A stretch of DNA of 38,548 nucleotides, taken from the IMG/VR virus record IMGVR_UViG_2563366976_000006, one strand, 5' to 3'. Position 1 is the first letter of the stretch. Every line of letters begins with the position of its first letter. The position numbers and the translations under genes were made by a program. The DNA is from a virus. Lineage: Duplodnaviria > Heunggongvirae > Uroviricota > Caudoviricetes. Below the pieces are notes generated by a model, which had not been told where the DNA came from, did no database searches, and saw only the letters and a program-made list of their open reading frames with translations. Shown here piece by piece: positions 1,136-35,816 of this stretch.

Positions 1136-2812
1136 CTAAGCAACATGTAGTTCATCGTTGGCGGAAGTGGCTGCTTTGCGCTCCTGCTCAATAGCTAGAG
1201 ACTCTCTATATTCTTTCGCCTCTGCAAACATTGTCCAGTGGGCGTTGATGTTCATGTCTTCAATAACTGATTTGATTTCTTTTAAATTTACGTTAAAAAA
1301 CTCTTTTCGTGAGTTAATTTTATTGACCTGCTTTTCGTTGAAAACTTTATGCAGATGGTTTTCTAATGATGGTGCATCATCACTATAAATCATCGCATGA
1401 ACATCGAACGAAAAAGGAACACTAGCATCTCCGAGTTCACGAACACGATCAAGTGGTTCAAGGCGGCGTGTCATTCCAATTTTATATACATCTTCGCCAA
1501 ATGAACCAATATTACTAATGATATAGACGTGGCCTGATCTGGTTTGTTGAGCCATAGAAATAGCTCGTTGATTTTTAGCTTCTGCTTCTTCATATTTTAA
1601 CTGTAGTTCAGCTATTTTTTGCTCTAAAGCTAAGCGTTGTTCTTCATTTGCAAGCATAAGTTCTTTCGTTGCTTTATTTATAGCTTGCTGAATAGCTTTT
1701 TCTTCTTTTTCAGCTTCTTTTATCGCTTTTTCATATTCTCTACGAGCTCTTTCCTCTTCACGAAGCTGTTCTTTAATCCTTCTTTGCTCTTCTTTTTCTT
1801 CGAGCATAATTTCATTAACTGCTACACCCCATTTTAGCTCGTTGAGTCTTGCCTGAAGATAGATGTCACTTATTTTTGCGGACCTAAAGGCAGAGCCATT
1901 GTAATTTACTAGTTGAAATGCATCTTTTATTTCTTGGGAAAGTTTTCCAAAATTGTTGTGTTTGACTTTTGATAAAATACTGTCAACTCTTCCATTGAAG
2001 GCATCCAAAACAAAGTTTATGGAAGTATTACGCCTGTTTTGCTCAACATAATCACACGAAGCAGCTTTATTAGTTTTTATTAATGATTTGGTTAACTCTC
2101 TGGCTTTTTGTAATTCCTTGCCTGCATCTGTAAATTCATAATTTTCTGCCAGCTCATCAAGTACACTACGGTTAGGGATGATCCATTCATCACCATAACC
2201 TTCAATTTTATTTTTCATTGATTTTGCAACTGCTTCATATTTTTCTGCAAACTCTTTAGCTTCATATGCTGAACCAGCAATCTCCTTTGCTCTTTCTTCT
2301 GCATCAGAAATAATTTTTACTGCATTGTCATTAGCATTTGAGATTAGCTCATTTGCTTTATTATTAGCATTATCAAGACGTTCTTTGGCTTTCAGGCGTG
2401 CATCGCGAGCGTCTTTGGTGATTGCTATAGCTTCGCTATTAGCGTTGCTTATTGTCATCTGAGCTTGATAATTTGCTTCGTTTACTGTTTTAGCCGCCTT
2501 AATTTGGGCATCATCTATTTTTTGCTTGGCTATTGAGTCCGCATTTTTTATCTTATTCTCTGCATCCATTACTGCGCTGTGCAATTCTTCGTATTGCCAC
2601 AATGGTGCTGCTCGCCCTTCAAGCTCTGATAATTCTCGTACGGTCTGTGCTAGTTTTTCTTGATTTTCAATCAGTTGGTTAGAAAGGGCTATGTTGTTAG
2701 CTGTCAGGTTATCTATAGCCGCTTTGTGTTTTTTACTTTGTTTAAATAATATTACAGCTAGAACAGGGGCGAGAAATGCTAATAAGAGTATAACGATGGC
2801 AAATGAATTCAT
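1136..2812 (-). CDS. membrane-anchored coiled-coil protein with DUF4041-like middle and T5orf172/GIY-YIG-like C-terminal domain (moron)
   Basis: 558-aa ORF; N-terminal hydrophobic helix, long E/K/A-rich coiled coil, C-terminal segment VYIISNIGSFGEDVYKIGMT typical of T5orf172-type domains; AT-rich relative to neighbours; AAGGA SD upstream. Confidence 0.6.
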   Translation of the reverse strand: MNSFAIVILLLAFLAPVLAVILFKQSKKHKAAIDNLTANNIALSNQLIENQEKLAQTVRELSELEGRAAPLWQYEELHSAVMDAENKIKNADSIAKQKIDDAQIKAAKTVNEANYQAQMTISNANSEAIAITKDARDARLKAKERLDNANNKANELISNANDNAVKIISDAEERAKEIAGSAYEAKEFAEKYEAVAKSMKNKIEGYGDEWIIPNRSVLDELAENYEFTDAGKELQKARELTKSLIKTNKAASCDYVEQNRRNTSINFVLDAFNGRVDSILSKVKHNNFGKLSQEIKDAFQLVNYNGSAFRSAKISDIYLQARLNELKWGVAVNEIMLEEKEEQRRIKEQLREEERARREYEKAIKEAEKEEKAIQQAINKATKELMLANEEQRLALEQKIAELQLKYEEAEAKNQRAISMAQQTRSGHVYIISNIGSFGEDVYKIGMTRRLEPLDRVRELGDASVPFSFDVHAMIYSDDAPSLENHLHKVFNEKQVNKINSRKEFFNVNLKEIKSVIEDMNINAHWTMFAEAKEYRESLAIEQERKAATSANDELHVA

Positions 2813-5352: not shown

Positions 5353-5579
5353 TGGCTGATGCAATGGATCTCGTACAGCAGCGCGTTGAAGAAGAACGCC
5401 AGCGCCATATCCGTGCAGCCCGTGCCAAATCACCGGGCGTGTCACGCGTACTTTGCATTGAATGTGAAGCGCCAATTCCGCCAGCACGACGCCGCGCCAT
5501 TCCGGGAGTGCAGCTTTGCATTACCTGTCAGGAAATCGCAGAACTGAAAGGCAAACATTACAACGGAGGTGCTGTATGA
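5352..5579 (+). CDS. TraR/DksA-family zinc-finger protein
   Basis: 75-aa ORF with CxxC...CxxC spacing (CIECEAP...CITCQ). Confidence 0.6.
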   Translation: MADAMDLVQQRVEEERQRHIRAARAKSPGVSRVLCIECEAPIPPARRRAIPGVQLCITCQEIAELKGKHYNGGAV

Positions 5580-6433
5580 GCACCATCCTGAAATGGGCGG
5601 GAAATAAAACCGCCATTATGCCAGAACTGAAAAAATACCTTCCTGCTGGCCCGCGACTGGTTGAACCTTTCGCGGGTTCCTGTGCTGTGATGATGGAAAC
5701 GGATTATCCCAGCTATCTGGTTGCGGATATTAATCCTGATTTAATCAACCTCTATAAAAAGGTTGCCGCTGATTGTGAATCGTTTATATCTCGCGCCAGA
5801 GTTTTATTTGAGATCGCAAACAGGGAGGTGGCTTATTACAACATAAGGCAGGAGTTTAACTGCTCAACTGAAATTACTGATTTCATGAAAGCGGTATATT
5901 TCCTGTATCTCAATCGTCACGGTTACCGTGGTTTATGTCGCTATAACAAGAGCGGGCATTTCAACATTCCCTACGGTAATTATAAAAATCCGTATTTCCC
6001 TGAAAAAGAACTTCGCACATTTGCAGAAAAAGCCCAGCGAGCAACGTTTATCTGCGCCAGCTTTGATGAAACGCTGGCGATGTTGAAGGCGGGAGATGTG
6101 GTGTATTGCGATCCGCCATATGACGGTACGTTTTCCGGCTATCACACTGATGGTTTCACTGAAGATGACCAGTATCACCTGGCATCCGTTCTTGAACATC
6201 GGTCATCAGAAGGACATCCGGTCATTGTTTCTAACAGTGACACATCCCTGATCCGTTCGCTGTATCGCAATTTTACTCACCACTATATCAAGGTAAAACG
6301 CAGCATCGGTGTGGCAGCTGGCGAGGGTAAATCAGCAACAGAAATCATTGCTGTTTCCGGGCCGCGCTGCTGGATGGGATTTGATTATTCGCGTGGCGTG
6401 GATAGTTCTGCCGTGTACGGAGTACGTGCATGA
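5576..6433 (+). CDS. dam: DNA adenine methyltransferase (Dam-like, N6-adenine)
   Basis: Starts [11 protein letters not shown]; FAGS motif and DPPY catalytic motif ([10 protein letters not shown]). Confidence 0.85.
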
Positions 6434-8844
6434 GTCATGCCGATATGAACAACTGCTGCGGCTTTAACGAGGCTGCCGCAGCATTCTCATGGAACAGCCC
6501 GAAAAAGGCCATTAACCCTTATCTGGACCCGGCGGAAGTTGCGCCGGTTTCTACGCTTTCAAACCTGATCACTCTGTACGCTGCCGATAACGAGCAGGAA
6601 CAGTTGCGCCGCGAGGCACTGAGTGATCAGGTCTGGGAGCGTTATTTCTTTAATGAATCACATGATCCTGTCCAGCGCGAAATGGAGCAGGATAAGCTCA
6701 TTAGCCGGGCAAAGCTGGCGCATGAGCAGCAGCGTTTTAATTCAGACATGGTCATTCTGGCGGACGTCAACGCCCAGCCTTCCCATATCAGCAAGCCGCT
6801 GATGCAACGTATTGAATACTTCAGCAGCCTGGGCAGGCCAAAGGCTTATTCCCGCTATTTACGTGAGACGATTAAGCCATGTCTGGAACGACTGGAGCAT
6901 GTACGCGACAGTCAGCTATCTGCATCTTTTCGCTTTATGGCAAGCCATGAAGGGCTGGACGGCCTGCTGATCCTGCCTGAAATGAGTCAGGATCAGGTGA
7001 AACGCCTGTCCACCCTGGTAGCTGCGCATATGAGTATGTGCCTTGATGCAGCTTGTGGTGATTTGTATGCCACCGATGACGTTAAGCCAGAAGAAATCCG
7101 CAAGACATGGGAAAAGGTGGCAGCGGAAACCCTGCGTCTGGATGTCATCCCACCTGCGTTTGAGCAACTCCGTCGGAAAAGAAACCGCCGTAAACCCGTG
7201 CCGTATGAACTCATTCCGGGTTCGCTGGCGCGTATGTTGTGCGCCGACTGGTGGTATCGGAAATTATGGAAGATGCGTTGCGAATGGCGGGAAGAGCAGT
7301 TGCGCGCTGTTTGCCTGGTCAGCAAAAAAGCATCTCCTTATGTCAGCTATGAAGCCGTGATGCATAAACGTGAGCAGCGCCGTAAGTCGCTGGAGTTTTT
7401 CCGTTCTCATGAACTGGTGAACGAAGACGGTGACACGCTGGACATGGAGGATGTGGTAAACGCCAGCAGCAGCAACCCTGCGCATCGCCGCAATGAGATG
7501 ATGGCCTGTGTTAAAGGTCTGGAGCTTATCGCGGAAATGCGCGGTGACTGCGCCGTTTTCTACACTATCACCTGTCCGTCGCGTTTCCATTCCACGCTAA
7601 ATAACGGCAGACCAAACCCGACCTGGACAAACGCGACGGTAAGACAAAGCAGCGATTATCTGGTCGGCATGTTTGCTGCATTTCGTAAGGCGATGCACAA
7701 AGCCGGGTTGCGCTGGTATGGCGTGCGGGTGGCTGAGCCGCATCATGATGGCACAGTTCACTGGCACCTGTTGTGTTTCATGCGCAAAAAAGACCGCCGT
7801 GCCATCACTGCATTACTGCGTAAGTTTGCCATCCGTGAAGACCGCGAGGAGCTGGGCAATAACACTGGGCCGCGCTTTAAGTCTGAGTTGATTAACCCGC
7901 GCAAAGGAACGCCGACAAGCTACATCGCGAAATATATCAGTAAGAACATTGACGGTCGTGGTCTGGCTGGCGAGATCAGCAAGGAAACGGGTAAATCTCT
8001 GCGTGATAACGCTGAATACGTGAATGCCTGGGCGTCTCTGCATCGTGTTCAGCAATTCCGCTTCTTTGGTATTCCGGGGCGTCAGGCTTACCGTGAACTT
8101 CGCTTGCTGGCTGGTCAGGCGGCAAGGCAACAGGGTGACAAAAAAGCAGGTGCGCCGGTACTGGATAACCCGCGTCTTGATGCCATTCTGGCTGCTGCTG
8201 ATGCTGGTTGTTTTGCCACCTACATCATGAAGCAGGGCGGCGTACTGGTTCCCCGTAAATATCACCTCATCAGAACCGCTTATGAAATCAACGAAGAGCC
8301 GACCGCCTATGGCGATCACGGCATTCGTATTTATGGCATCTGGTCACCCATTGCAGAGGGCAAGATCTGCACTCATGCAGTGAAGTGGAAAATGGTTCGT
8401 AAAGCCGTTGACGTTCAGGAGGCGGCAGCCGACCAGGGCGCTTGCGCCCCTTGGACTCGTGGCAATAACTGTCCCCTTGCTGAAAATTTGAACCAACAGG
8501 AGAAAGATAAATCAGCTGATGGGGACACCAGAACGGACATTACCCGCATGGATGACAAGGAGTTGCACGATTACCTGCACAGTATGAGCAAAAAAGATCG
8601 CCGGGAGCTGGCAGTAAGGTTGCGCCTGGTTAAACCGAAAAGGTGTAAAGACTACAAACAGCGAATTACAGATCATCAGCATCAGCAGCTCGTCTATGAA
8701 CTGAAGTCCAGAGGATTTGATGGCAGCGAGAAAGAAGTCGATTTGCTCCTTCGCGGTGGCAGTATTCCATCAGGAGCAGGCCTGCGTATCTTCTATCGGA
8801 ACCAGCGTCTGAAGGAAGATGATAAATGGCGGAACCTGTATTAA
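6430..8844 (+). CDS. A: replication initiation endonuclease (P2 gpA family)
   Basis: 804-aa ORF; HxH-type motif region (HWHLL) typical of rolling-circle initiators; position after the early genes. Confidence 0.85.
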
Positions 8845-8997: not shown

Positions 8998-9186
8998 ATG
9001 CAGGACTATTTTTTGGAGTCTTTGAAGCTCCAGCGCATTGATTTTTTTCTTAAGCTTGTAGCGGCTAGTGAGTGTAGTGATGAAGAGAAGGGGCTGGCCC
9101 TGCAGTGGGTTTCTGAACTGACAGATGAACTCATGGCAAAAATCAGAACCCACGAATACAACCGCTCAATGGATGTCATCAATTGA
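8998..9186 (+). CDS. Tum-like (antirepressor operon) small protein, N-terminal part
   Basis: 62-aa ORF with GGAGGA SD, downstream of the LexA box; different frame from the next ORF. Confidence 0.4.
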   Translation: MQDYFLESLKLQRIDFFLKLVAASECSDEEKGLALQWVSELTDELMAKIRTHEYNRSMDVIN

Positions 9187-9196
9187 GGTGACTTTT

Positions 9197-9430
9197 ATGC
9201 GCATTGAAATAATGATCGATAAAGAGCAGAAGATTAGCCAGTCTACCCTGGACGCCCTTGAATCCGAGCTTTACCGCAATCTGCGCCCCCTGTATCCCAA
9301 AACGGTAATTCGTATCCGCAAAGGTAGCTCTAACGGTGTGGAACTGACCGGACTGCAACTGGACGAAGAAAGAAAACGAGTGATGAAAATTATGCAGAAG
9401 GTGTGGGAAGACGACAGCTGGCTGCATTAA
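9197..9430 (+). CDS. DinI-family protein (Tum C-terminal-like)
   Basis: 77-aa ORF starting MRIEIMIDKE, DinI-like pattern; SOS-regulated position. Confidence 0.65.
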   Translation: MRIEIMIDKEQKISQSTLDALESELYRNLRPLYPKTVIRIRKGSSNGVELTGLQLDEERKRVMKIMQKVWEDDSWLH

Positions 9431-9565
9431 GAAACGTTGCTGGCGTCTGAACTTGTTTCTGGCGTCAGCAAGGTTGAACAACGAGCCCTTGCGAGGCGTT
9501 AGCTCTGTAGTGCATGTCTATGCCGCATGAGATCGCATGATCGTTTGAGGATCGTTTTTGCTAAG

Positions 9566-9590
9566 GCCCGCCAGAACTGGCGGGCTTTTG
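9566..9590 (+). terminator. rho-independent terminator (GCCCGCCAG..CTGGCGGGC TTTT)
   Basis: 9-bp GC-rich perfect stem followed by TTTT after the tum/dinI operon. Confidence 0.6.
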
Positions 9591-9640
9591 CGTAGATCAT
9601 GCAGGTGCATGAAAACCACTACATAAAGCGGGCAGGCGTG

Positions 9641-9659
9641 GCGGGGATACGAGCGCGCG
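9641..9659 (+). other. cos-like cohesive-end sequence (GGCGTGGCGGGGA...)
   Basis: First 13 nt match the 186 cohesive end as I recall it, 14/19 to P2; correct position (after early region, before Q) and orientation. Confidence 0.45.
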
Positions 9660-9675
9660 CTTGCCATCGAACTCT

Positions 9676-9858
9676 TTCTTTATTAGACTCAAAATGCTCT
9701 TTAGTGTAGGAACAATGGTTCCAGCCGGGTGATTAGCCAGGCTCTAATTTATTGTCCATAACAGGGTTGCGAAAGACACACACTCCTCCTTCGCATATCC
9801 TGCTTGGGCAGTCTATGCGAAGGAGGAGTGCATGTCTTTCGCTGTCTTTAGTAAAGGG
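9676..9858 (+). ncRNA. candidate retron msr-msd non-coding RNA (boundaries approximate)
   Basis: Immediately upstream of the retron RT; contains a 72-nt near-perfect hairpin and small msr-like hairpin (GGAAC AATG GTTCC); tentative a1/a2 pairing 9676-9687 with 9847-9858 needs G-U wobbles. Confidence 0.4.
9770..9841 (+). repeat. long inverted repeat / hairpin, candidate msd stem-loop
   Basis: 28-nt arms complementary at 26/28 positions, 16-nt loop containing an additional 4-bp stem. Confidence 0.6.
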
Positions 9859-9860
9859 CA

Positions 9861-10844
9861 ATGCTCGCTGCAATTGTTGCAGCGAGCATATCTGAGATGG
9901 ATATTATGCAGCTTGAAAAAAAATTATGTGAAAAATTCAACCTTACCCCTTTGAAGCTTTCTATCCTCTCATCCAAAGCTCCAAAAAAATATCGCGTATA
10001 TTATATACCCAAGAGAACTTCTGGTCTTAGGGCGATTGCTCAGCCGACTAAAGAGTTGAAGCAAATTCAACGTTTTTTGGTTTCGGAGTTGAAGCCTCTT
10101 TTGCCAATTCATTCATCAGCAATGGCTTACAGATGTGGCATAAGCATTAAGGATAATGCTGAACGTCACAAGAACAATCCATTTATATTAAAAATGGATT
10201 TTCAGAATTTTTTTAATAAAATTAAACCGGAAATTTTTTTTGATAAGTTCAAAAAAATGGATGTTCAACACAACGCCAGAGATGAAATACTTCTGCACAA
10301 TTTTTTGTTTTGGAAGCCAGGGCAAAAAAGAAGTATTACACATATATTGAGCGTAGGAGCACCGAGTTCTCCATTCATTAGTAATTTTGTCATGTTTGAT
10401 TTTGATTCAGCTATCAGTGAGTGGTGTGCTGATTTTGGTATTGTTTATACTCGTTATGCGGATGATATAACATTTTCAACCGCTAGAAAAAATATTTTAT
10501 TCAGTGTTCCTAAAATAGTTAAAAACATGCTTGCTGAGCACGCATCAGGTATTACCATTAATGAAGCCAAGACCATTTTTACATCTAAGGCTCACAATAG
10601 GCATGTTACAGGTGTAACTATTACTACTGATGGTGAATTATCTATAGGGCGAAAGAGAAAAAAATATCTTTTCTCTCTTGTTTTTAAATATAGCAATGGG
10701 AACTTGACAAGTGAAGAAATTTTATATGCTAAAGGACTGATGTCTTATTGCATGCATATTGAAAGAAATATAATAATAAGAATGAAAAATAAGTATGGTG
10801 CGGAAGTTATCAATAAATTTCTTAAGGAAGGTTGTGATGAATGA
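9861..10844 (+). CDS. retron-type reverse transcriptase
   Basis: 327-aa ORF; RVYYIPKRTSGLRAIAQPTKELK motif and YADD catalytic box; start may be 9861, 9897 or 9906. Confidence 0.85.
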   Translation: MLAAIVAASISEMDIMQLEKKLCEKFNLTPLKLSILSSKAPKKYRVYYIPKRTSGLRAIAQPTKELKQIQRFLVSELKPLLPIHSSAMAYRCGISIKDNAERHKNNPFILKMDFQNFFNKIKPEIFFDKFKKMDVQHNARDEILLHNFLFWKPGQKRSITHILSVGAPSSPFISNFVMFDFDSAISEWCADFGIVYTRYADDITFSTARKNILFSVPKIVKNMLAEHASGITINEAKTIFTSKAHNRHVTGVTITTDGELSIGRKRKKYLFSLVFKYSNGNLTSEEILYAKGLMSYCMHIERNIIIRMKNKYGAEVINKFLKEGCDE

Positions 10845-12450
10845 TTCTAAAAAAAGAGTGGATAATGTTTTTTCGGAGTTTATTGGTCTGATTAATGATG
10901 GCGTGCCTGAGGATAAATTAAAATATTCACCTGTATTGAATTTGCTAAATGAATCTTTAAATAAAGACAACTTATACCTTAAGAAAATATCAATTGTAGA
11001 CTTCAAAAGATTAAGGGATGTTATTGTAAATCTTGAAGATGATCTCACAGTTTTTGTTGCTGACAACGGCTATGGTAAAACAACTTTGCTTGATGCGATC
11101 GCAATTTCTTTAAGTTGGCTTCGTTCTAATATACAGAAAAAAGATAAACCTGGGTCGTATATAAGGGAAGTGGATATAAATAACTCAAAAGATGCCTTGT
11201 ATGCATCTATTGCTGCAACATTTAAAGTACAAGAGCTGAATACTAATGTTTTAATCACAAATGCAAAAGATGGTGTGTCTTTTAAACGCAGTAACGATTT
11301 ACAAGAAATTAAGCTGCTAGCAACAATGTACCGCTATGTTAATACGTTCTTAGATAATTCAAGTCTACCTGTGATGGCTTATTATTCAATTGTTAGGTCT
11401 GTCGTTGGTGGTGGTATTGATAATAGAAGAAGAAGCGGTAAGAATAAAGTTTCTTGGTCCAAATTTGATGTGTATGACGATTTCATGTTTGATAGAAATG
11501 ATTTTGGCGAATTTTTAAATTGGCTCATGTTTTTATCGAATAAATCCGCTCATGAGAATCCAGTGGTCACTGATAACCCAGAGTTACTCAGAAAGGAAAT
11601 AGAAAGTATCAATAACACAATTGAACAACTAAGTATTGTTTCTAACATCGATTTTAGTATTATTAATCAGCTAAAGAGTAGTCTTGAAGAGAAAAAAAAC
11701 CAATTAAATAAGTTTAGTAGTGAAGGGTTTTTAAGTTCATCTGTCTTATATAGGAATGTAATAAATGCTATATTGAGATTTTTGCCTGAATTCGAAAGCA
11801 TTAATCTGGTTTATAGTGAGACTGATGTTAAGCTTGTTCTTATCAAGAATGGTATTCAATTAGATGCGCAACAACTCTCACAAGGTGAGAAAACCATACT
11901 TACTCTGGTAGGTGATTTAGCTCGCCGACTTTCCCTTTTGAATCCAGAGCTACAAAATCCATTTGAAGGTCAAGGCATAGTATTAATTGATGAGGTTGAT
12001 TTGCACCTTCATCCAACTTGGCAGCAGAAAATTATAGAGCGGCTATTAACAACCTTTCCTAATGTTCAGTTTGTTCTTTCTACACACAGCCCTCAAGTCA
12101 TATCTACTGTTCCTGCCAGGAGCATAAGGATTTTAGAGGAGGTGGAAGATGAATTTGGTGATATTTCGATAAAAGCTGTTAGGCCCCGCTTTCAAACTAA
12201 AGGGGTGATGAATAGTGATGCATTACTTTATGGAATGGGAGCAGACCCTGCGCCTCCTGTAGAAGAAGTAAAATGGTTGGAAGAGTACAAAAAATTTATT
12301 GAATTGGATCAGTTTGATAGCGATTCAGCGCTTAAACTACGCCAGAATATAATAAGTCACTTTGGGGAAGATCATCCTTTAGTTGTAGAACTCGATCAGA
12401 TGACTTCACTCATGGAGTTTAAAAGAAAAATTAGAAATAAAAAACAATGA
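10837..12450 (+). CDS. retron effector ATPase (PtuA-like, ABC/AAA-type)
   Basis: Walker A DNGYGKTT, Walker B LIDEVDLHLH; start overlaps RT stop by 8 nt. Confidence 0.8.
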   Translation: MNDSKKRVDNVFSEFIGLINDGVPEDKLKYSPVLNLLNESLNKDNLYLKKISIVDFKRLRDVIVNLEDDLTVFVADNGYGKTTLLDAIAISLSWLRSNIQKKDKPGSYIREVDINNSKDALYASIAATFKVQELNTNVLITNAKDGVSFKRSNDLQEIKLLATMYRYVNTFLDNSSLPVMAYYSIVRSVVGGGIDNRRRSGKNKVSWSKFDVYDDFMFDRNDFGEFLNWLMFLSNKSAHENPVVTDNPELLRKEIESINNTIEQLSIVSNIDFSIINQLKSSLEEKKNQLNKFSSEGFLSSSVLYRNVINAILRFLPEFESINLVYSETDVKLVLIKNGIQLDAQQLSQGEKTILTLVGDLARRLSLLNPELQNPFEGQGIVLIDEVDLHLHPTWQQKIIERLLTTFPNVQFVLSTHSPQVISTVPARSIRILEEVEDEFGDISIKAVRPRFQTKGVMNSDALLYGMGADPAPPVEEVKWLEEYKKFIELDQFDSDSALKLRQNIISHFGEDHPLVVELDQMTSLMEFKRKIRNKKQ

Positions 12451-12462
12451 GGAGACTTGAGG

Positions 12463-13131
12463 ATGAAATTTCTTCGAAGGATATATCCTGGCCCTAACGT
12501 GCTAAGTAGTTATGATTTTAATACTCAAACTTGGGATGATGTATCATCATCTGACAAAAAAGATATTTGGGTAGATTTAGTTAAAATGCAAGGCAAAGTA
12601 TGCGCTTATTGTGAAAGGAAAATAAACCTAACAAAAGAGGGGGATAAGCATATTGAGCATTTCAAGCGAAAAGGTATTCATCGCGAATTAACGTTTAACT
12701 GGGAGAATCTGTTTGGTTCGTGTGGGGAAAAACAAAGATGCGGATTCTACAAAGACAAACAAGAATATAATGAGGGTGACCTGTTAAAAGCTGATGAAAT
12801 GGATCCTGAAGATTTTTTTGTTTTTATCTATAGTGGTGATGTTATTGTAAAACCTGAGATAAATGAACGAAATAAAGTAATAGCTGAGGTTACCCTGAGG
12901 GTATTCAATCTTAATCCCGAGAACGGTGGTGTTAAAGCCGAGAGAAGAAATGTCCTCGAGAAAGGCTTAGGCACTATAAAGGGGTATGTTAAGATTGCTC
13001 AAGACTTAATTGATAGTGGTGAGGATGCAGAAGAAGTTCGGCAATATGTTCGGGATGAGTATTATGAAAAAATTTCACAAATGGATTTTAAAACTGCAAG
13101 GAAACATGTTTTTGAAGCATTTCTACCTTGA
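12463..13131 (+). CDS. retron effector HNH endonuclease (PtuB-like)
   Basis: CAYCERK...HIEHF...C-x-x-C pattern; GGAG SD; 12 nt after ATPase stop. Confidence 0.75.
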   Translation: MKFLRRIYPGPNVLSSYDFNTQTWDDVSSSDKKDIWVDLVKMQGKVCAYCERKINLTKEGDKHIEHFKRKGIHRELTFNWENLFGSCGEKQRCGFYKDKQEYNEGDLLKADEMDPEDFFVFIYSGDVIVKPEINERNKVIAEVTLRVFNLNPENGGVKAERRNVLEKGLGTIKGYVKIAQDLIDSGEDAEEVRQYVRDEYYEKISQMDFKTARKHVFEAFLP

Positions 13132-13133
13132 AT

Positions 13134-13155
13134 AAAGGAGGGGAGACCCTCCTTT
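13134..13155. terminator. bidirectional hairpin terminator (AAAGGAGGG gaga CCCTCCTTT)
   Basis: Perfect 9-bp stem between convergent HNH and Q genes, T-run after it. Confidence 0.6.
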
Positions 13156-13158
13156 TGT

Positions 13159-14187
13159 TTAGATTATGTACTCATCAAAATTAATTATGTCTGATCCAAG
13201 CCAATCATTGAGATCGAGTATTTTCCTTTGCAATGGTTTTAATTCATTAGTGACGAAAACCTTACTAGCCTTCTCCACATCCCCAAACCCCCCGACATTA
13301 TTAGGCATTATCCCCATCATTTGTGGCGGCACACGATGCGCCGCCATCATGTCGTCCCGGCTCACGTTCTTGATATTCAGGAACTCATCCTTCGCCGCCA
13401 CTTCTGACAACGGGATAATCTGAAGCCCGTCCTTTTTACCGTTAGGCGAGTACATAAACAGGTTACGGAAGTTACCAGGACCTTTGGCGCTTTTCATCGC
13501 ATTGCGGAGGTTGTTCACATCCTCCTGGTTCTGCGCAGCATCGGTCATGTACATGATGAAGCCTGCATGACTGCCGTTAATGTAATACTTGCGGCGGAAC
13601 AGCGTGGCGGACTCGTTGAGCAGAGCTGACGGAATGGCAGAAAGATAACCGGGCAGGCCGTAGATCTCCTGGTTGATGTCCGGTTCTATCAGATGAAAAA
13701 TGCTGCCTTTCGTGAACTGATACGGCTGGGTTGTCATACCGTATTGCACAAACCAGTAGGTATCCAGGTCTAACCCGCGTCGGGTGTATTTTGCCAGAGC
13801 AGGCTCAAGGGCTATAACTTCACCGAAGCGGTTCGTGCGTTTCTCCAGGTAGGCGTTACCAAATACCAGATAGTCCTGCACAAAACGTGAAAAAGCCTGC
13901 TGGCTGAGCAGCGGGTGAGGGATGTAGGTACTGGTCAGAATGTTGCATTTCACCGCAATTGGTGAGCTGTGATGCACGGCGGCGCGGAAGGTTCGTGCCA
14001 GTCCGTCAAAGCTGACGGGCGGCTCATACCAGCGATCCATCTGTACGCATTCCACATAGTCCAGCAGTTCACGGCGGTCCAGAACAGGAACGGGATCGCC
14101 AAAGCTGAATGCTTCGGCTGAAGTCTGGCTTTTATGCTTGAGCTGATTCGTCGCCGCAGCGCGGTTTTTCTTACTCTTTCCCATCAA
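13159..14187 (-). CDS. Q: portal protein (P2 gpQ family)
   Basis: 342-aa ORF, first of the leftward Q-P operon; size and position match P2 Q. Confidence 0.85.
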   Translation of the reverse strand: MMGKSKKNRAAATNQLKHKSQTSAEAFSFGDPVPVLDRRELLDYVECVQMDRWYEPPVSFDGLARTFRAAVHHSSPIAVKCNILTSTYIPHPLLSQQAFSRFVQDYLVFGNAYLEKRTNRFGEVIALEPALAKYTRRGLDLDTYWFVQYGMTTQPYQFTKGSIFHLIEPDINQEIYGLPGYLSAIPSALLNESATLFRRKYYINGSHAGFIMYMTDAAQNQEDVNNLRNAMKSAKGPGNFRNLFMYSPNGKKDGLQIIPLSEVAAKDEFLNIKNVSRDDMMAAHRVPPQMMGIMPNNVGGFGDVEKASKVFVTNELKPLQRKILDLNDWLGSDIINFDEYII

Positions 14188-15950
14188 AAAATCTCCACAA
14201 TATTGCTGGTATTGGCGGATTCGCCCTGCAGCGGTTCGTTAAACAGTGCGTGCATCGTTGCCCAGGCCAGATCGGCGTGGCTGGCTTCTTCGCTGCGGCT
14301 GGCTTCATAGGTCGGGCGGTTGCCGCTGGCGGTGGTGGCGCGACGGATTGCCATGAATGACTGCGCAATGTCGGTGTGCCCGGCGTCAAACTCCAGACGG
14401 CGGTGGCTGATAATGTCGTAGGCCTTGAGTACCAGGGCGTTTTTAACATTGGGGTTATAGACAAACTCCCGGACAGCAGGAAAGAACGCTTTCACGTTCT
14501 CGTAAACCCCGTGACCAACGCCGGTTGAGTCGATACCGATATAAGTCACGTTGTACTGTTCGGTAAGTTTTTTGATGGCGTCAGCCTGGGCGCGGAAATC
14601 CATCCCGCGCCACTGGTGACGCTCAAGAATGCGGAACTTACCACCCGGCACGGCTGGCGGTGCCACCACCACGCATCCGGCGCTGTCGCCGTTTTGCGTA
14701 CCTTTTGCCGGGTCATAACCGATCCACACTTCGCGCCAGCCAAACGGGCGCAGCGCCAGTGCATGAAAGTCGGTCCAGACTTCCCAACTGTCCACCATGC
14801 ACGCCTGCAGCTCGCTGAGCGGAAACACGGACGCGAGATCGTCCACAAACTCGCACATCAGCAGGTTCTGGTATTCGTCCGGGCTGTACTCCATGCGCAA
14901 CTGGTCAAGGTCGAACAGGTTACAGCCGCCGCGCACCGCATCTTCCACGGTGACTATCTGGCGGTACTGCCCGTCTGCGCACAGCAGGCCGGGGGCCAGA
15001 TTGCTGTGGGACAGGTCGATGTCCACCTTATCGGCTTTGTTGCGCCCACGGTTGAACAGCGCACCGGACCAGAACGGATAAGCACTGTGTGTCAGACTGG
15101 ATGGCGTGGAAAAATAGGTTTGTCGCCATTTTTTGTGAATAGCCATACCGGAAGCCACTTTGCGCAGCTCCTGGAATTTTGGTATCCAGAAATATTCATC
15201 CAGATACAGGTTGCCGTGATAACTCTGGGCCGTGCGGGCATTGGTGCCGAGGAAATACAGTGTGGCCCCGTTGGGAAGCACCATCGGATCGCCTTTCAGC
15301 TCCACCTCTACTTCTTTGGCGAAGTCGATGATGTACTGTTTAAAGACGTGGGCCTGTGCCTTACTGGCGGAAAGGAAAATCTGGTTACGTCCGGTAAGCA
15401 GGGCGTCAATCAGGGCTTCACGGGCAAAGTAAAAGGTCGCGCCGATCTGGCGTGACTTCAGCAGGTTGCGGATGCGGTTGGTTTTTCCGGCTTCCCACCA
15501 GTGGCGCTGGTAGTTGAACATGGAGGAATGGAAAATTTCTTCCAGCTTCTCAATCTGTTCATCGGTGAAAACGTTCTTTTCCGGCTGACGGCGTGGGCCT
15601 TTGTTGCGGTTGGCGACGTTAGGGTTTAAGTCGGCTTCGTTGCCGCCATTGTTAAACTTGCCGATCCGCGCGTGGCGTTCCGACTGGCGCGCCAGCAGGT
15701 CAATTTCTTTGAAATCTTTCCCTTCTTTGTGCTCCTTCATAATGAGCTGGCAGTAGCGTGCGGCGGTGGTGAGCTGCATCTGATCCAGCGGCCCATAGTC
15801 ACCCCACTTGTCGCGTTTTTTCCAGCTGTGAACGGTTGCAACTTTCTCGCCCAGCATTTCAGCAATGCGGGCGACGCGGTATCCCTGAAAGTACAGCAGC
15901 ATGGCCTGCCGACGGGGATCGAGATCTGCGGGTGTCAGTGTGGTGTTCAT
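14184..15950 (-). CDS. P: terminase large (ATPase) subunit (P2 gpP family)
   Basis: 588-aa ORF, overlaps Q by 4 nt, divergent from O. Confidence 0.9.
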   Translation of the reverse strand: MNTTLTPADLDPRRQAMLLYFQGYRVARIAEMLGEKVATVHSWKKRDKWGDYGPLDQMQLTTAARYCQLIMKEHKEGKDFKEIDLLARQSERHARIGKFNNGGNEADLNPNVANRNKGPRRQPEKNVFTDEQIEKLEEIFHSSMFNYQRHWWEAGKTNRIRNLLKSRQIGATFYFAREALIDALLTGRNQIFLSASKAQAHVFKQYIIDFAKEVEVELKGDPMVLPNGATLYFLGTNARTAQSYHGNLYLDEYFWIPKFQELRKVASGMAIHKKWRQTYFSTPSSLTHSAYPFWSGALFNRGRNKADKVDIDLSHSNLAPGLLCADGQYRQIVTVEDAVRGGCNLFDLDQLRMEYSPDEYQNLLMCEFVDDLASVFPLSELQACMVDSWEVWTDFHALALRPFGWREVWIGYDPAKGTQNGDSAGCVVVAPPAVPGGKFRILERHQWRGMDFRAQADAIKKLTEQYNVTYIGIDSTGVGHGVYENVKAFFPAVREFVYNPNVKNALVLKAYDIISHRRLEFDAGHTDIAQSFMAIRRATTASGNRPTYEASRSEEASHADLAWATMHALFNEPLQGESANTSNIVEIF

Positions 15951-18004: not shown

Positions 18005-18655
18005 ATGAGCCTGAGTCCCGCACGGCAGCATCGCCTGCGCGTTCAGGCTGAACAGGCCGCCCGCGAAGGCGGCAGCGTTCGCCACGCGTCGGGCTATGAC
18101 CTGATGCTGCTGCAACTGGCGGAAGACCGCCGCCGTCTCAAGGGCGTTCAGTCCACGGTGAAAAAAGCGGAAATCAAGGTGGAGCTGCTGCCGAAGTACG
18201 CCGCCTGGGCGGAGGGGGTCCTGGCTGCCGGAGGCGCTCAACAGGATGACGTGCTGATGTACGTGATGCTGTGGCGCATTGATGCCGGAGATTATGCCGG
18301 GGCGCTGGAGATCGGGCGTCACGCCCTGCGTCATGGCTGGGTGATGCCGCTGGGTAACCGCAACGTGCAGACCGTGCTGGCAGAGGAAATGGCAGACGCA
18401 GCCCAGAGCGCAATGCTTGCCGCCACCGGCTTTGATGCCGATCTGTTGCTGCAGACGCTGGAGCTGACAGACGGTCTGGATATGCCGGACCAGTCACGGG
18501 CACGTCTGCATAAAGCGGTTGGCGCTGTCCTGAGTGAAAGCAATCCGGCGTCTGCCCTTAATCATCTCAACCATGCGTTACAGCTCGATCCCCGCTGTGG
18601 CGTGAAAAAAGACAAACAGCAGCTGGAGCGCAGACTGCGCAATGACAGCCGCTGA
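18005..18655 (+). CDS. M: terminase small/endonuclease subunit (P2 gpM family)
   Basis: 216-aa ORF after N. Confidence 0.8.
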   Translation: MSLSPARQHRLRVQAEQAAREGGSVRHASGYDLMLLQLAEDRRRLKGVQSTVKKAEIKVELLPKYAAWAEGVLAAGGAQQDDVLMYVMLWRIDAGDYAGALEIGRHALRHGWVMPLGNRNVQTVLAEEMADAAQSAMLAATGFDADLLLQTLELTDGLDMPDQSRARLHKAVGAVLSESNPASALNHLNHALQLDPRCGVKKDKQQLERRLRNDSR

Positions 18656-21528: not shown

Positions 21529-22224
21529 TCATGTCAAATATTGATAACTTTTATCAATTTCAAGTTTGTGAAATTTGGTTATCTTTGAATCAATGTATAA
21601 ATCTATGAACATTGCTATCCCTATCATAAATATAAATAGAATGCTTAAATAAATAATGGGGGTGGCAATCATAATTGTAAATTTGTTCTTGTCTGTCGTT
21701 TTTGCTAACTCTTCTTTCTTTTCAGGAATTAGCAAGTAGCTACAAATGAAATCTTTTGTGGCTTGTTGGATTGAAGTGATCTTATCAAGCTGTGACTTGT
21801 CAACACATACATCTGGTGTGATATTCCATTCAGGTGTGTATGGTATGTTTTGTGCGTGTTCTGGTTTCATCCAAAAGGAATCTTTTGTTTCTCTATGTGT
21901 GATTTCAACCCAATTTACGGGTTCTTTGGCGATGAAATAGGTAAATTTATAAAAACAAAGTGCTGAGGTCATAATGACTGCAATTCCAAATGAGACGATA
22001 AATATTTTATGTTTTTTAATATGGGGTTTTGTGCTTAACTTATATTTGCAAAGACTAAGTCTAATAATTGGCTTTGATATTCCAATCTTTGATATCAAAA
22101 AGTCTTCTTCTGGATAGGATGTGTTTAACCATGACCAAAAAGCCGAGATGCCACCTATAAGCCATTTAAATATAAGACCACCAATGGCCGTAGCTAAAAA
22201 TGTATTTATTTTATCGATTTCCAT
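21529..22224 (-). CDS. AT-rich moron: predicted 3-TM membrane protein of unknown function, antisense to late operon
   Basis: 231-aa ORF on opposite strand between S and V; strongly AT-rich DNA; hydrophobic helices at N-terminus, middle and C-terminus. Confidence 0.6.
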   Translation of the reverse strand: MEIDKINTFLATAIGGLIFKWLIGGISAFWSWLNTSYPEEDFLISKIGISKPIIRLSLCKYKLSTKPHIKKHKIFIVSFGIAVIMTSALCFYKFTYFIAKEPVNWVEITHRETKDSFWMKPEHAQNIPYTPEWNITPDVCVDKSQLDKITSIQQATKDFICSYLLIPEKKEELAKTTDKNKFTIMIATPIIYLSILFIFMIGIAMFIDLYIDSKITKFHKLEIDKSYQYLT

Positions 22225-22324: not shown

Positions 22325-22902
22325 ATGAACGCACAATTAACCGAAATCATGCGCCTTATCACCAACCTGATCCGCACTGGTGTAGTCACCGAAGTGGACC
22401 GGGAAAACTGGCTTTGCCGGGTGAAAACGGGCGACCTTGAAACCAACTGGATTAACTGGCTGACGCTGCGCGCGGGTAATGCCGCACATGGTGGAAACCA
22501 TCGGAAGGTGAGCAGGTGGTGCTGCTGAGTCTGGGAGGCAATCTGGAAACCGCCTTTGCGTTGCCCGCTGTCTATTCGAATCAGTTCGCGCCACCTTCGA
22601 CGTCGGCGGACGCCTGCGTGACAGAACATCCTGACGGTGGCTGGTTTGAATACGAACCCGCCACCGGGCGCTGGTATGTCAGGGGCATCAAATCCATGGT
22701 CATTGAGGCTGCCGACAACATCACCCTGAAAACCAGTGAGTTTGTGCTGGAGGCTGACCGCACGCGTATTAACAGCGAAGTAGTGATCAATGGTGGTGTT
22801 ACCCAGGGCGGCGGTGCAATGAGTTCTAACGGAATTGTGGTTGATGCACATCAGCATACTGGCGTCCTGAAAGGCGGCGACACAACCGGAGGCCCGGTAT
22901 GA
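22325..22902 (+). pseudogene. V: baseplate spike gene (P2 gpV family) interrupted by a frameshift near 22480-22490
   Basis: N-terminal 52 codons in one frame (22325 onward) and the rest in another (ending 22902); the two ORFs together cover a normal-length V. Confidence 0.65.
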
Positions 22903-26295: not shown

Positions 26296-26898
26296 ATGGA
26301 ACAGGCTATTTTGGGAAAAGACGGTTACGCTTTAAATGATGGGGAAATCATCGTACATAACTATGATGGCGAAACGCGGGAATATATTTCTACATCAACT
26401 GAATATCTCGCTGTCGGCGTCGGTATCCCGGCATGTTCCTGTCTGGATGCGCCAGGTGCACATAAGGCTGGTTATGCAATTTGCCGTTCTGTAGAATTAA
26501 ATTCATGGGAATATGTGCCAGATCATCGCGGCGAAACTGTTTATAGCACGGAAAATGGCCGGAAAGTAACCATTTCAGATATTGGCGAATATCCCGAAAA
26601 TACAACCACTATCGCCCCATTAACGCCATATGATAAATGGGATGGTGAGAAATGGGTGACCGATACTGAGGCACAGCATAGCGCCGCAGTAGACGCGGCA
26701 GAAGCACAGCGTCAGTCACTGATTGATGCTGCAATGGCTTCCATCAGTCTGATTCAGCTGAAATTACAGGCCGGACGGAAGTTGATGCAGGCAGAAACAA
26801 CCCGGCTTAACGCTGTGCTGGATTACATTGACGCGGTGACGGCAACAAATACCAGCACAGCGCCGGATGTCATCTGGCCTGAACTGCCGGAGGCGTAG
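26296..26898 (+). CDS. G: tail fibre assembly protein (P2 gpG family), active orientation
   Basis: 200-aa ORF directly after H. Confidence 0.8.
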   Translation: MEQAILGKDGYALNDGEIIVHNYDGETREYISTSTEYLAVGVGIPACSCLDAPGAHKAGYAICRSVELNSWEYVPDHRGETVYSTENGRKVTISDIGEYPENTTTIAPLTPYDKWDGEKWVTDTEAQHSAAVDAAEAQRQSLIDAAMASISLIQLKLQAGRKLMQAETTRLNAVLDYIDAVTATNTSTAPDVIWPELPEA

Positions 26899-27313
26899 GC
26901 CATTCAATATCTGGCGCACCGGAAATATCGACCAGTTCCAGTGCGTCCAGATAATCCAGCCACGAATTATATTGCGCCAGTTCCTCGCCTTTCAGACGAC
27001 CAATAGCAGCTTTGCCAGGCCACTGATGGGTATTGATGTAGGTATTGACTTCTGAAACCAAAGATATTTTTTTCATTTCAGCCGTCAACACCTCATCCTC
27101 TTTTGAAGGGGGGGGGGAATTAATCCATACTGGCCGTCCTGAACTATCAGCGCCAATTTCTTTCCCTTCTGGATGCAGACCAAGAAATTGCTCATATGTT
27201 TCTCTGGTAATTTCAATAACATCATCAGGAAGCGTTCCCGCATCCTCATATTCTGGAAACAATTCTTGCAGATAAAAACTTTTACTTCCGGGTGAAAAGA
27301 ATACTGAGTTCAT
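26870..27313 (-). CDS. alternative tail fibre assembly protein (silent orientation)
   Basis: 147-aa ORF convergent with G, C-terminus similar to G C-terminus (DYLDA...WPE/WPTPP). Confidence 0.7.
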   Translation of the reverse strand: MNSVFFSPGSKSFYLQELFPEYEDAGTLPDDVIEITRETYEQFLGLHPEGKEIGADSSGRPVWINSPPPSKEDEVLTAEMKKISLVSEVNTYINTHQWPGKAAIGRLKGEELAQYNSWLDYLDALELVDISGAPDIEWPTPPAVQAR

Positions 27314-27315
27314 TA

Positions 27316-27810
27316 TTACCGTCCAATGATTAACGCTGAGACGCTGGTATCTGAAGGAAAGGCTGCATTCAGTGGTTTGTCGACTTTGAACACAATCGTA
27401 TTATTCCCCCTGACAGCGGCAAAAGAACAAACCGCAGTCGCGTATGAACCTGTAATATTACTGGATACACCACCATAAGCTGTTGTTGATACCAGAGGGA
27501 TAACGCCCAGTACCTTATTAGGAAATACAAAGGGCAATGTGGCTGTGGCAATATAAGACTTATTAGAACCTGTGATGGCATAAGCATTATCAGTCATTCC
27601 ATTCATCGCCACTGGGCCGCTTATACTTACAGTAACCATCTGTATGATTAGCCCGTCAGGTTGACGAATCACAAAATTTCCATTGCCACCAGTAACCGTC
27701 CAGAAAGACATATCAGGGATTTGGTTTTCCCCGTTGCCCACATTCCGTTTTGCCGCTTCTCCCAAACCAACGTTTAAGAAAATGCAGCGATTACGGCTAA
27801 CTGGCATCAT
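27316..27810 (-). CDS. alternative tail fibre C-terminal cassette (silent orientation; fused to H after inversion)
   Basis: Shares the GLGE junction codons with H at the crossover site; no independent promoter or SD expected. Confidence 0.6.
   Translation of the reverse strand: MMPVSRNRCIFLNVGLGEAAKRNVGNGENQIPDMSFWTVTGGNGNFVIRQPDGLIIQMVTVSISGPVAMNGMTDNAYAITGSNKSYIATATLPFVFPNKVLGVIPLVSTTAYGGVSSNITGSYATAVCSFAAVRGNNTIVFKVDKPLNAAFPSDTSVSALIIGR
27757..27782. repeat. inversion crossover site (right)
   Basis: ttctcccaaacc aa cgtttaagaaaa, inverted relative to 25784-25809. Confidence 0.5.
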
Positions 27811-27831
27811 CCCCTATTTTTATTCAGGGAG

Positions 27832-28404
27832 ATGATCATGCTTATTGGCTATGTACGCGTGTCAACAAATGACCAGAACACCGATTTGCAACGTAATGCG
27901 CTGAACTGCGCGGGATGTGAGCGGATTTTTGAGGACAAAATCAGTGGCACTAAGTCCGACAGACCGGGGCTTAAAAAACTGCTCAGGACACTATTGGCAG
28001 GAGACACGCTGGTTGTCTGGAAGCTGGACAGGTTGGGGCGCAGTATGCGGCATCTTGTTACGCTGATAGAAGAGTTGCGCCAGCGTGGTGTGAATTTCCG
28101 AAGCCTGACTGACAGTATTGATACCAGTACCCCAATGGGCCGTTTCTTTTTTCATGTCATGGGTGCCCTGGCTGAAATGGAACGCGAACTGATAGTTGAA
28201 CGTACCCGGGCAGGGCTGGCTGCAGCTCGTGCTAAAGGCAGAGTAGGTGGACGCCGTCCTAAGTTGACCACTGAACAGTGGGCACAGATTGGACGTTTAC
28301 TCGAGGCCGGAGAATCAAGACAGCGTATTGCACTGATTTTTGATGTAGGCGTTTCTACCATTTATAGAAAATTTCCGGCAAATAAGAGCAATGAATCCCC
28401 CTGA
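27832..28404 (+). CDS. serine DNA invertase (Gin/Pin/Hin/Cin family)
   Basis: MLIGYVRVSTNDQNTDLQ N-terminus with catalytic serine; C-terminal HTH; adjacent to inverted repeats. Confidence 0.9.
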   Translation: MIMLIGYVRVSTNDQNTDLQRNALNCAGCERIFEDKISGTKSDRPGLKKLLRTLLAGDTLVVWKLDRLGRSMRHLVTLIEELRQRGVNFRSLTDSIDTSTPMGRFFFHVMGALAEMERELIVERTRAGLAAARAKGRVGGRRPKLTTEQWAQIGRLLEAGESRQRIALIFDVGVSTIYRKFPANKSNESP

Positions 28405-35716: not shown

Positions 35717-35773
35717 CGTTAAAAAACAGTGCTTCTAACATCATGATTTTAAATAGCATAAATTTCAGGCAAC

Positions 35774-35816
35774 AAAAAACCCATCAACCTTGAACCGAAA
35801 TGGCGGGGTTGATGGG
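35774..35816 (-). terminator. candidate rho-independent terminator downstream of ybjL (minus strand)
   Basis: 10-bp stem cccatcaacc/ggttgatggg followed by TTTTTT on minus strand; loop is long (17 nt). Confidence 0.45.

Follow-up and report, generated by a model that had tools for sequence, protein, structure and literature searches.

A probable P2-family cos site and the retron cassette beside it in an Escherichia coli prophage

Within the P2 family of phages the packaging site, cos, has been defined experimentally for 186 and PSP3 and for P2 and P4. In P2 and P4 it comprises a 19-nt 5' overhang and a 55-bp core (PMC3931495, PMC5694545, PMC9594776), the core being the stretch common to these two elements, as later papers report of the work of Ziermann & Calendar 1990 (cited in PMC5694545, PMC9594776 and PMC3931495). 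The cos sites of SEN8, SEN5 and Smp131 have been assigned by annotation or analogy (PMC5427200, PMC5261728, PMC3931495). The published sites of Salmonella phage SEN8 (Felsduovirus; NC_047753), which is printed as ggcgtggcggggatacgag in the genome announcement (PMC5427200), and of Escherichia phage Cartapus (Elveevirus; OV696611), which is annotated in its sequence record, are both labelled putative.

The neighbourhood of cos varies in its gene content. In P2-like phages the gpA-cos-gpQ region is a hotspot for which 1,650 arrangements of genes, retrons among them, have been described (Rousset et al. 2022, PMC9122126), a description that has been extended by a 2026 preprint (10.64898/2026.02.27.708500). 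According to papers that cite Dodd & Egan 1996, Virology 219:115 (PMC5694545, PMC6868368, PMC7826664), retrons Ec67 and Ec86 stand in place of the DNA from cos to a terminator of a 186-related prophage. The retron-Ec67 element is described in PMC7826664 as a 34-kb insert that has 26-bp repeats on either side and includes a Dam methylase.

The DNA analysed here, referred to throughout as the window, is a stretch of 38,548 nt from the IMG/VR virus record IMGVR_UViG_2563366976_000006. It holds sequence of a prophage of ~35.9 kb that is inserted in E. coli between rcdA and ybjL and belongs to the P2 family, in the Fels-2/SEN8/Cartapus lineage. Comparison with the sites mentioned above indicates that positions 9510-9660 are very probably the cos packaging site of this prophage, and that a slot for cargo extends from +27, counted from the top-strand cut, to the stop codon of the portal gene. 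The cos site and the retron arrangement found here are both already described in kind. Set against the P2-like cos-proximal defence hotspot, the locus does not differ in kind and represents one more allele. As a discovery its value is therefore small, consisting in the confirmation of a textbook feature and the fixing of the prophage map, and the exact boundaries should be useful for cataloguing the cargo of P2-like hotspots or for designing cos-based packaging plasmids for this terminase lineage.

The 19-nt element, the 55-bp core and the predicted nicks

The sequence GGCGTGGCGGGGA occurs as a single exact copy in the window, on the + strand at 9635-9647, when both strands are searched, and an exact 13-mer would be expected by chance only ~0.001 times in 38.5 kb of double-stranded sequence. 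It opens a 19-nt element, GGCGTGGCGGGGATACGAG, at 9635-9653 (+ strand), which is the predicted 5'-protruding end. The annotated cos of 186 (NC_001317, 1-19) reads GGCGTGGCGGGGAAAGCAT and the cosL of P2 (NC_001895, 1-19) reads GGCGAGGCGGGGAAAGCAC. A first-pass annotation, made from the letters of the sequence, had claimed a match to the first 13 nt of the 186 cohesive end and to 14 of 19 positions in P2. Comparison with the records bears out both figures, as window 9635-9647 agrees with the first 13 nt of 186 cos at 13/13 and the whole 19-mer agrees with P2 at 14/19; the 19-mer agrees with 186 at 15/19 and with SEN8 at 19/19, being the very sequence annotated there as 'putative cos site' (NC_047753, 1-19). 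The coordinates of that annotation, 9641-9659, were placed 6 nt too far to the right. The 19-mer shares the family pattern (Peduoviridae) of a G+C-rich element 19 nt long that begins with GGCG(A/T)GGCGGGG.

When the window was searched with the full 186 19-mer at up to 3 mismatches no match was returned, because the site differs from that of 186 at 4 positions. With the 13-mer at 2 mismatches, 3 occurrences were found against ~1 expected from shuffling, a statistic that does not discriminate. Neither the 186 19-mer nor the 13-mer revealed a second cos-like site in the window.

For a comparison that extends beyond the overhang, the circular junctions (right end joined to left end) of 186, PSP3, P2, P4 and SEN8 were rebuilt and aligned without gaps to the window. 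The 55-bp cos core, the stretch common to P2 and P4 as defined by aligning their termini, corresponds to 9606-9660 (+ strand), from -29 to +26. Its identity to the window is 54/55 in SEN8 and Cartapus, 45/55 in PSP3, 44/55 in 186, 43/55 in P4 and 42/55 in P2, and 32 columns are invariant across the seven elements. The first-pass annotation had named alignment with the P2 and 186 genome termini as the check on its proposal; this alignment is gapless over the core, places the cut at 9634|9635 and points to no other site. The interpretation of the site as a cos of the P2 family is thus supported.

The position predicted for the top-strand cut, 9634|9635, is given by the record termini of P2, P4, 186, PSP3 and SEN8 when the record ends are aligned. 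Moreover, in a BLAST comparison of 9590-9665 with phage records, those of SEN8 and PSP3 end exactly at window position 9634 and those of Smp131 and SEN5 start at 9635. The bottom-strand cut would lie at 9653|9654. This is an extrapolation from the conserved spacing, because positions 14-19 of the overhang differ from those of P2 and 186. A search of the literature for experimental end mapping in phages with the ATACGAG variant found none, the papers on SEN8, SEN4/5 and Smp131 each deriving cos from annotation or analogy. Cleavage by terminase at these two places would be predicted to produce 19-nt 5' overhangs at 9635-9653.

Each of the two predicted cuts is preceded by a related heptamer. Directly 5' of the top-strand cut stands GCGGGCA (9628-9634, + strand), and the form GCG(G/C)GC(A/G) is kept in 12/13 of the cos regions compared, the exception being 186 with GTGGGCA. 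A mirror heptamer, GCGCGCG on the bottom strand (9654-9660, - strand), lies directly 5' of the predicted bottom-strand cut, and with it the conserved part of cos ends; every P2-like cos examined has (T/C)GCGCGC at +20..+26. The cut contexts in the window are hence GCGGGCA^GGCG on the top strand and GCGCGCG^CTCG on the bottom, and P2 has GCGGGCG^ and GCGCGCA^ at the same two places. As the mirror arrangement spans 19 + 7 nt, conservation reaches +26 and no further. The inverted repeat across the top-strand cut of P2 (CCGCCC...GGGCGG) was given no role, since neither the window nor 186 has kept it.

The experimentally defined sites of 186/PSP3 and P2/P4 thus share with the window the heptamers at both cuts, a TGCAT at -29 and three upstream repeats with equal spacing, and in all of them cos adjoins Q, which is on the opposite strand. 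The window differs from these sites at overhang positions 14, 16, 17 and 19 and in the core from -17 to -12. The distance from cos to the stop codon of Q is also different, at ~170 bp in P2 and 186 compared with 3.5 kb in the window. The 19-mer and the bases at +20..+26 are identical to the window in SEN8 and Cartapus, where the upstream module is near-identical and the gene order the same.

The upstream module and the limits of conservation

The whole cos module extends from -125 to +26 (9510-9660, + strand) and is the sole conserved non-coding island between the genes of the right arm and the cargo. Its left part contains three (T/C)GCAT repeats at -124, -111 and -101 (9511-9515, 9524-9528 and 9534-9538, + strand), recognised by sequence comparison. 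Repeats stand at identical positions in the window, SEN8, 186, P2, P4, ENT90, YenM201.16 (Yersinia) and ST147phi7.1 (Klebsiella), with a partial match in PSP3 and pro483. The spacer from -94 to -37 is only 17% identical between P2 and P4. It is followed by ATGCA (-36) and TGCAT (-29), found in the same comparison at the left edge of the 55-bp core (9599-9610, + strand). TGCAT is present at -29 in 12/13 of the cos regions compared, and Kp4871-3 has GCGCAC there. Both the mirror heptamers and the spacing within the array recur throughout the 13 cos regions, which come from distinct genera.

This pattern, in which the positions of the repeats are conserved and the motif appears to be specific to the lineage, is what would be expected of a terminase specificity element. 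The (T/C)GCAT array is hence the probable part of cos that is recognised by the small subunit of terminase. A wider and rather speculative reading is that the packaging signal is a unit of ~151 bp reaching beyond the 55-bp core, in which the repeats at -124, -111, -101 and -29 would have fixed positions and a motif that varies with the lineage (TGCAT, CGCAT, TGCAC or GGATC). They would act as a cosB-like specificity determinant on the right-end side of the cut, and the mirror heptamers would set both nicks and fix the boundary of the cargo at +26. At the three repeat positions, in the region -130 to -95, the Klebsiella phage Kp4871-3 has TGCAC and the Aeromonas phage LPM4 has three GGATC repeats.

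Direct reading of the sequence between the repeats and the core also reveals a GC-rich hairpin, GCCCGCCAG-AA-CTGGCGGGC, followed by TTTT (9566-9589, + strand). It is likely to be the terminator of the rightward tum/DinI transcript, and an equivalent CGCCAGAGCTGGCG dyad is found at the same place in 186, PSP3, SEN8 and ST147phi7.1. The terminator scan of the window did not flag the hairpin at 9566-9589.

The limits of the module were drawn from a larger set of genomes. When viral contigs were searched with the 26-mer GGCGTGGCGGGGATACGAGCGCGCGC, at least 120 loci were returned. In 114-115 IMG/VR loci with this 26-mer, comparison with the window without gaps gives an identity of 0.84-0.95 between -120 and -1, ~0.3 upstream of -140 and 0.22-0.28, equivalent to random, from +27 onwards. 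The onset of conservation is sharp, at -125 with the first repeat, in 115 unique upstream sequences. Immediately after +26 the sequences part company, with 93 different 25-mers among 122 sequences, and the distance from +26 to the start of portal-gene homology lies between 210 and 3586 bp (median 1709, n = 87). In other loci, homology to the window begins again at 13165 at the earliest, within the 3' end of Q. These limits of conservation, with the point at which homology resumes, define 9510-9660 as the cos module and 9661-13158 as the variable defence slot, which is thereby delimited to the base. The retron had been proposed to occupy the interval from cos to the portal gene, and this holds, as the cassette fills the space from +26 of cos to the stop codon of Q at 13159.

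Conservation of the junction itself is wide. Species-representative genomes from about ten or more Enterobacterales genera contain the exact 33-mer from -7 to +26, Klebsiella, Enterobacter, Citrobacter, Serratia, Pantoea and Raoultella being among these genera. Unrelated cassettes are found between the conserved cos and the conserved Q, as is characteristic of a cos-proximal hotspot. Beyond +26, SEN8, Cartapus and the window carry unrelated cargo, namely a gene for a hypothetical protein plus an HNH gene, a DUF4145 protein and the retron, respectively. The idea that exchange of cargo is tied mechanistically to the cutting of cos was rejected as a default explanation, the junctions being at +26/+27 and at neither of the nicks. 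They are more simply explained by selection on the last essential base together with recombination between conserved flanks.

Several of the IMG/VR loci with a short distance between cos and Q carry related sequence after +26 (AACGGGGTGAAATGG...), which resembles TGACGGTGGTGCTG of P2 and CAGAGGTGGCGCG of 186. The sequence shared by these short-interval loci from +27 to +51 may represent the 'empty-site' sequence that has been replaced by cargo such as the retron.

The retron cargo and the packaging genes

The cargo of the window, judged by its predicted RNA and proteins, is a type I-A (Ec78-like) retron, consisting of an msr-msd ncRNA, a reverse transcriptase, a PtuA-type ATPase and a PtuB HNH nuclease. 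It begins with its own promoter-like sequence, TTGCCA-17-TAGACT, which was found in a promoter scan; this forms the first bases of the cargo (9661-9689, + strand) and is situated just upstream of msr. The ncRNA was located with Rfam at 9696-9898 (+ strand), with msr at 9696-9760 and msd and the 3' hairpins at 9762-9898. The match of msr to RF00170 scores 47 bits, just under the gathering threshold of 52 (E = 4.5e-7), and that of 9762-9898 to STnc400 (RF02058) scores 54.6 bits, under the gathering threshold of 80 (E = 1.5e-9). The STnc400 family is labelled a 'Gammaproteobacterial sRNA' and matches the msd region of the retron end to end, and for this reason it appears to describe a retron ncRNA and not an independent sRNA.

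The reverse transcriptase is encoded by the longest open reading frame at 9861-10844 (+ strand; Pfam RVT_1, 4e-30; PADLOC RT_I-A, 1.5e-131) and is named 'retron St85 family RNA-directed DNA polymerase' by PGAP. Its true start is probably the ATG at 9906 rather than 9861, because the PADLOC HMM match begins at residue 16 and the reverse transcriptase of E. coli FORC_082 aligns from there. Next come a PtuA-type SMC/AAA ATPase (10837-12450, + strand; PADLOC PtuA, 3.6e-189, and ATPase_I-A, 9.5e-161; Pfam AAA_21/AAA_15/SMC_N) and the PtuB HNH nuclease effector (12463-13131, + strand; PADLOC PtuB, 8.2e-116, and HNH_I-A, 1.4e-58), which PGAP calls 'retron Ec78 anti-phage system effector HNH endonuclease PtuB'. 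A hairpin terminator detected by the terminator scan (13134-13155) lies between ptuB and the converging portal gene and marks the right edge of the cargo. In the model put forward for relatives of this retron, the msDNA keeps an ATPase-HNH complex inactive until it is degraded by a phage nuclease, after which the HNH protein depletes specific tRNAs (PMC12475279).

The RefSeq annotation is wrong in this region, as it lacks both cos and the retron ncRNA and runs a pseudo-CDS across the site. This PGAP pseudogene ('hypothetical protein, internal stop') covers 9527-9709, spanning cos and the start of msr, and it looks like an annotation artefact.

A related retron that has already been described is that of E. 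coli FORC_082, a type I-A system of known structure (PMC12475279) with the same three-gene architecture, which occupies the same slot after an identical 55-bp core. In its locus (L138, 6507-10059) the retron starts with TTGCCT at +28, placing the -35 element one base further to the right than in the window. The proteins have diverged from those of the window, with identities of 57% for the reverse transcriptase, 54% for PtuA and 53% for PtuB, and the msd stem is different. The FORC_082 prophage is a decayed relative of the window prophage, with a truncated terminase gene. Retron Ec78 is likened to the window retron by its three-gene type I-A architecture and not by sequence. In the Ec67 and Ec86 prophages, likened here from the descriptions in citing papers, a retron likewise replaces the DNA from cos to the end of the packaging operon in the P2/186 family; the type of retron differs, that of the window being type I-A with PtuA/PtuB, as does the phage lineage.

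From 9100 to 13400 the window and the chromosomes of E. coli N10 and 23CRST038 show 100% identity, and these two are the only 2 of 5,426 complete E. coli genomes with this retron allele. The conserved flanks are found with other cargo in ~1,280 genomes, where they enclose genes for HIRAN, DUF262, AAA ATPase and hypothetical proteins. Among the 120 viral loci listed, a reverse transcriptase lies in the cos-Q slot in 9 and the retron allele of the window in none.

The packaging genes lie to the right of the site. The portal gene, a homologue of P2 Q, is at 13159-14187 (- strand; Pfam Phage_portal) and its product is 93% identical to that of Cartapus, 82% to that of SEN8 and 60% to the portals of P2 and 186. 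The large terminase, the homologue of P2 P and the enzyme expected to cut cos, is encoded at 14184-15950 (- strand; Pfam Terminase_6N, Terminase_6C and Terminase_5), with identities of 99.8% to Cartapus, 99.7% to SEN8, 63.6% to P2 and 62.8% to 186. The small terminase, the M homologue that is expected to recognise cos, is at 18005-18655 (+ strand; 'phage terminase small subunit' in PGAP) and is 98.1% identical to that of Cartapus, 94.9% to that of SEN8 and 42.5% to P2 gpM. At the DNA level the packaging module shares 96-97% identity with Cartapus and with many P2-like phages of Klebsiella. In the isolated phages SEN8 and Cartapus a near-identical terminase adjoins the same cos core, and the divergent parts of cos (overhang positions 14-19 and core -17 to -12) thus travel with the divergent terminase.

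To the left of cos are the replication gene A (6430-8844) and the tum/DinI gene (9197-9430), as in 186. The order A, tum/DinI, cos, cargo, Q(-), P(-) is the layout of P2 and 186. The position and orientation relative to Q were as the first-pass annotation had expected, with cos read on the + top strand and Q and P on the - strand to its right. The site therefore combines a 55-bp core in register, a position opposite the strand of Q and P, and cognate homologues of gpP and gpM, as is found for cos in the P2 family.

From this arrangement a course of events can be proposed. After excision and replication, the small and large terminase subunits would bind the cos module, probably through the (T/C)GCAT repeats at -124, -111, -101 and -29. 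Two nicks 19 nt apart would then be introduced, each just 3' of a GCG(G/C)GC(A/G) heptamer, at 9634|9635 on the top strand and 9653|9654 on the bottom, leaving 5'-protruding ends of GGCGTGGCGGGGATACGAG. In the linear DNA of the virion, whose left end would fall at 9635, the retron would come first among the cassettes and A-tum/DinI would be the last genes, at the right end. The DNA from 9661 to the portal stop codon would be dispensable cargo, with the promoter of the retron abutting the cos core. Cargo differs from phage to phage, and the conserved sequences on either side of it are the 151-bp module and the Q/P genes.

Competing readings and the state of the prophage

A resemblance that arose by chance in G+C-rich non-coding DNA, with the true packaging site elsewhere or with no cos here at all, would fit the agreement with 186 at only 15/19 positions and the empty search with its 19-mer at up to 3 mismatches. 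This reading is effectively refuted by sequence comparison and its likelihood is put close to nil, given that the 13-mer is expected only ~0.001 times, that 36 further flanking positions are in register with seven cos junctions, that SEN8 has the identical sequence annotated as cos and the window offers no other candidate, and that its position and orientation are canonical. It is also highly improbable, if slightly less so, that the island has been kept mainly as a transcription terminator or as a regulatory region serving the tum/DinI operon and the promoter of the retron, and not for packaging. The terminator-like hairpin at 9566-9589 and the promoter-like site that starts at 9661 could be taken in this sense, but invariance within the island is highest in the 19-mer, the two heptamers and the TGCAT repeats rather than in the hairpin, P4 has the same core amid unrelated neighbouring genes, and conservation stops before the promoter is reached.

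Of more weight, though still unlikely, is the possibility that cos is intact and idle, in which case the prophage would be defective and the site would go uncut in present hosts unless a related helper phage supplied the missing functions. The baseplate gene V (22325-22902) contains a 1-nt deletion that shifts its frame, giving a length of 578 nt compared with 579 nt in all close relatives. The deletion is probably real, since it is common to two independent assemblies, those of N10 and 23CRST038. The prophage is hence probably tail-defective and may be unable to make infectious particles. Such elements decay while keeping cos, as is evident from the FORC_082 relative, in which the same cos is retained despite the truncated terminase gene. 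Against an idle site, the annotation treats the remaining genes for morphogenesis, lysis and regulation as intact, isolated phages have terminase, portal, scaffold and capsid genes with 96-97% DNA identity to those of the window, and the cleavage of cos and the filling of heads are independent of the baseplate and of V. An idle cos would in any case be a matter of use and not of identity, and is compatible with 9510-9660 being the packaging site.

The prophage is bounded by its attachment site, an imperfect direct repeat of ~27 bp (14 nt exact, AACAAAAAACCCAT), with attR at 35758-35784 and its partner at 10801-10827 of L005. Like the retron-Ec67 element, this prophage has a Dam methylase gene, located at 5516-6433. 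Between the integrase and repressor genes, 1136-2812 (- strand) encodes a protein of 558 aa with DUF4041 and T5orf172/MUG113 nuclease-like domains, which PGAP names 'SNIPE associated domain-containing protein'; it is likely to be a second defence cargo, in the int-cI slot. A DUF6216 gene (21529-22224, - strand) lies on the opposite strand between the virion-morphogenesis gene and gene V, as another moron-type insertion, at the position of orf30 in P2. Finally, a serine recombinase gene (27832-28404; Resolvase + HTH_7) adjoins oppositely oriented genes for a tail fibre and its assembly protein (26296-28404), an arrangement which suggests that 26296-28404 is an invertible host-range segment of the Gin/Cin type.
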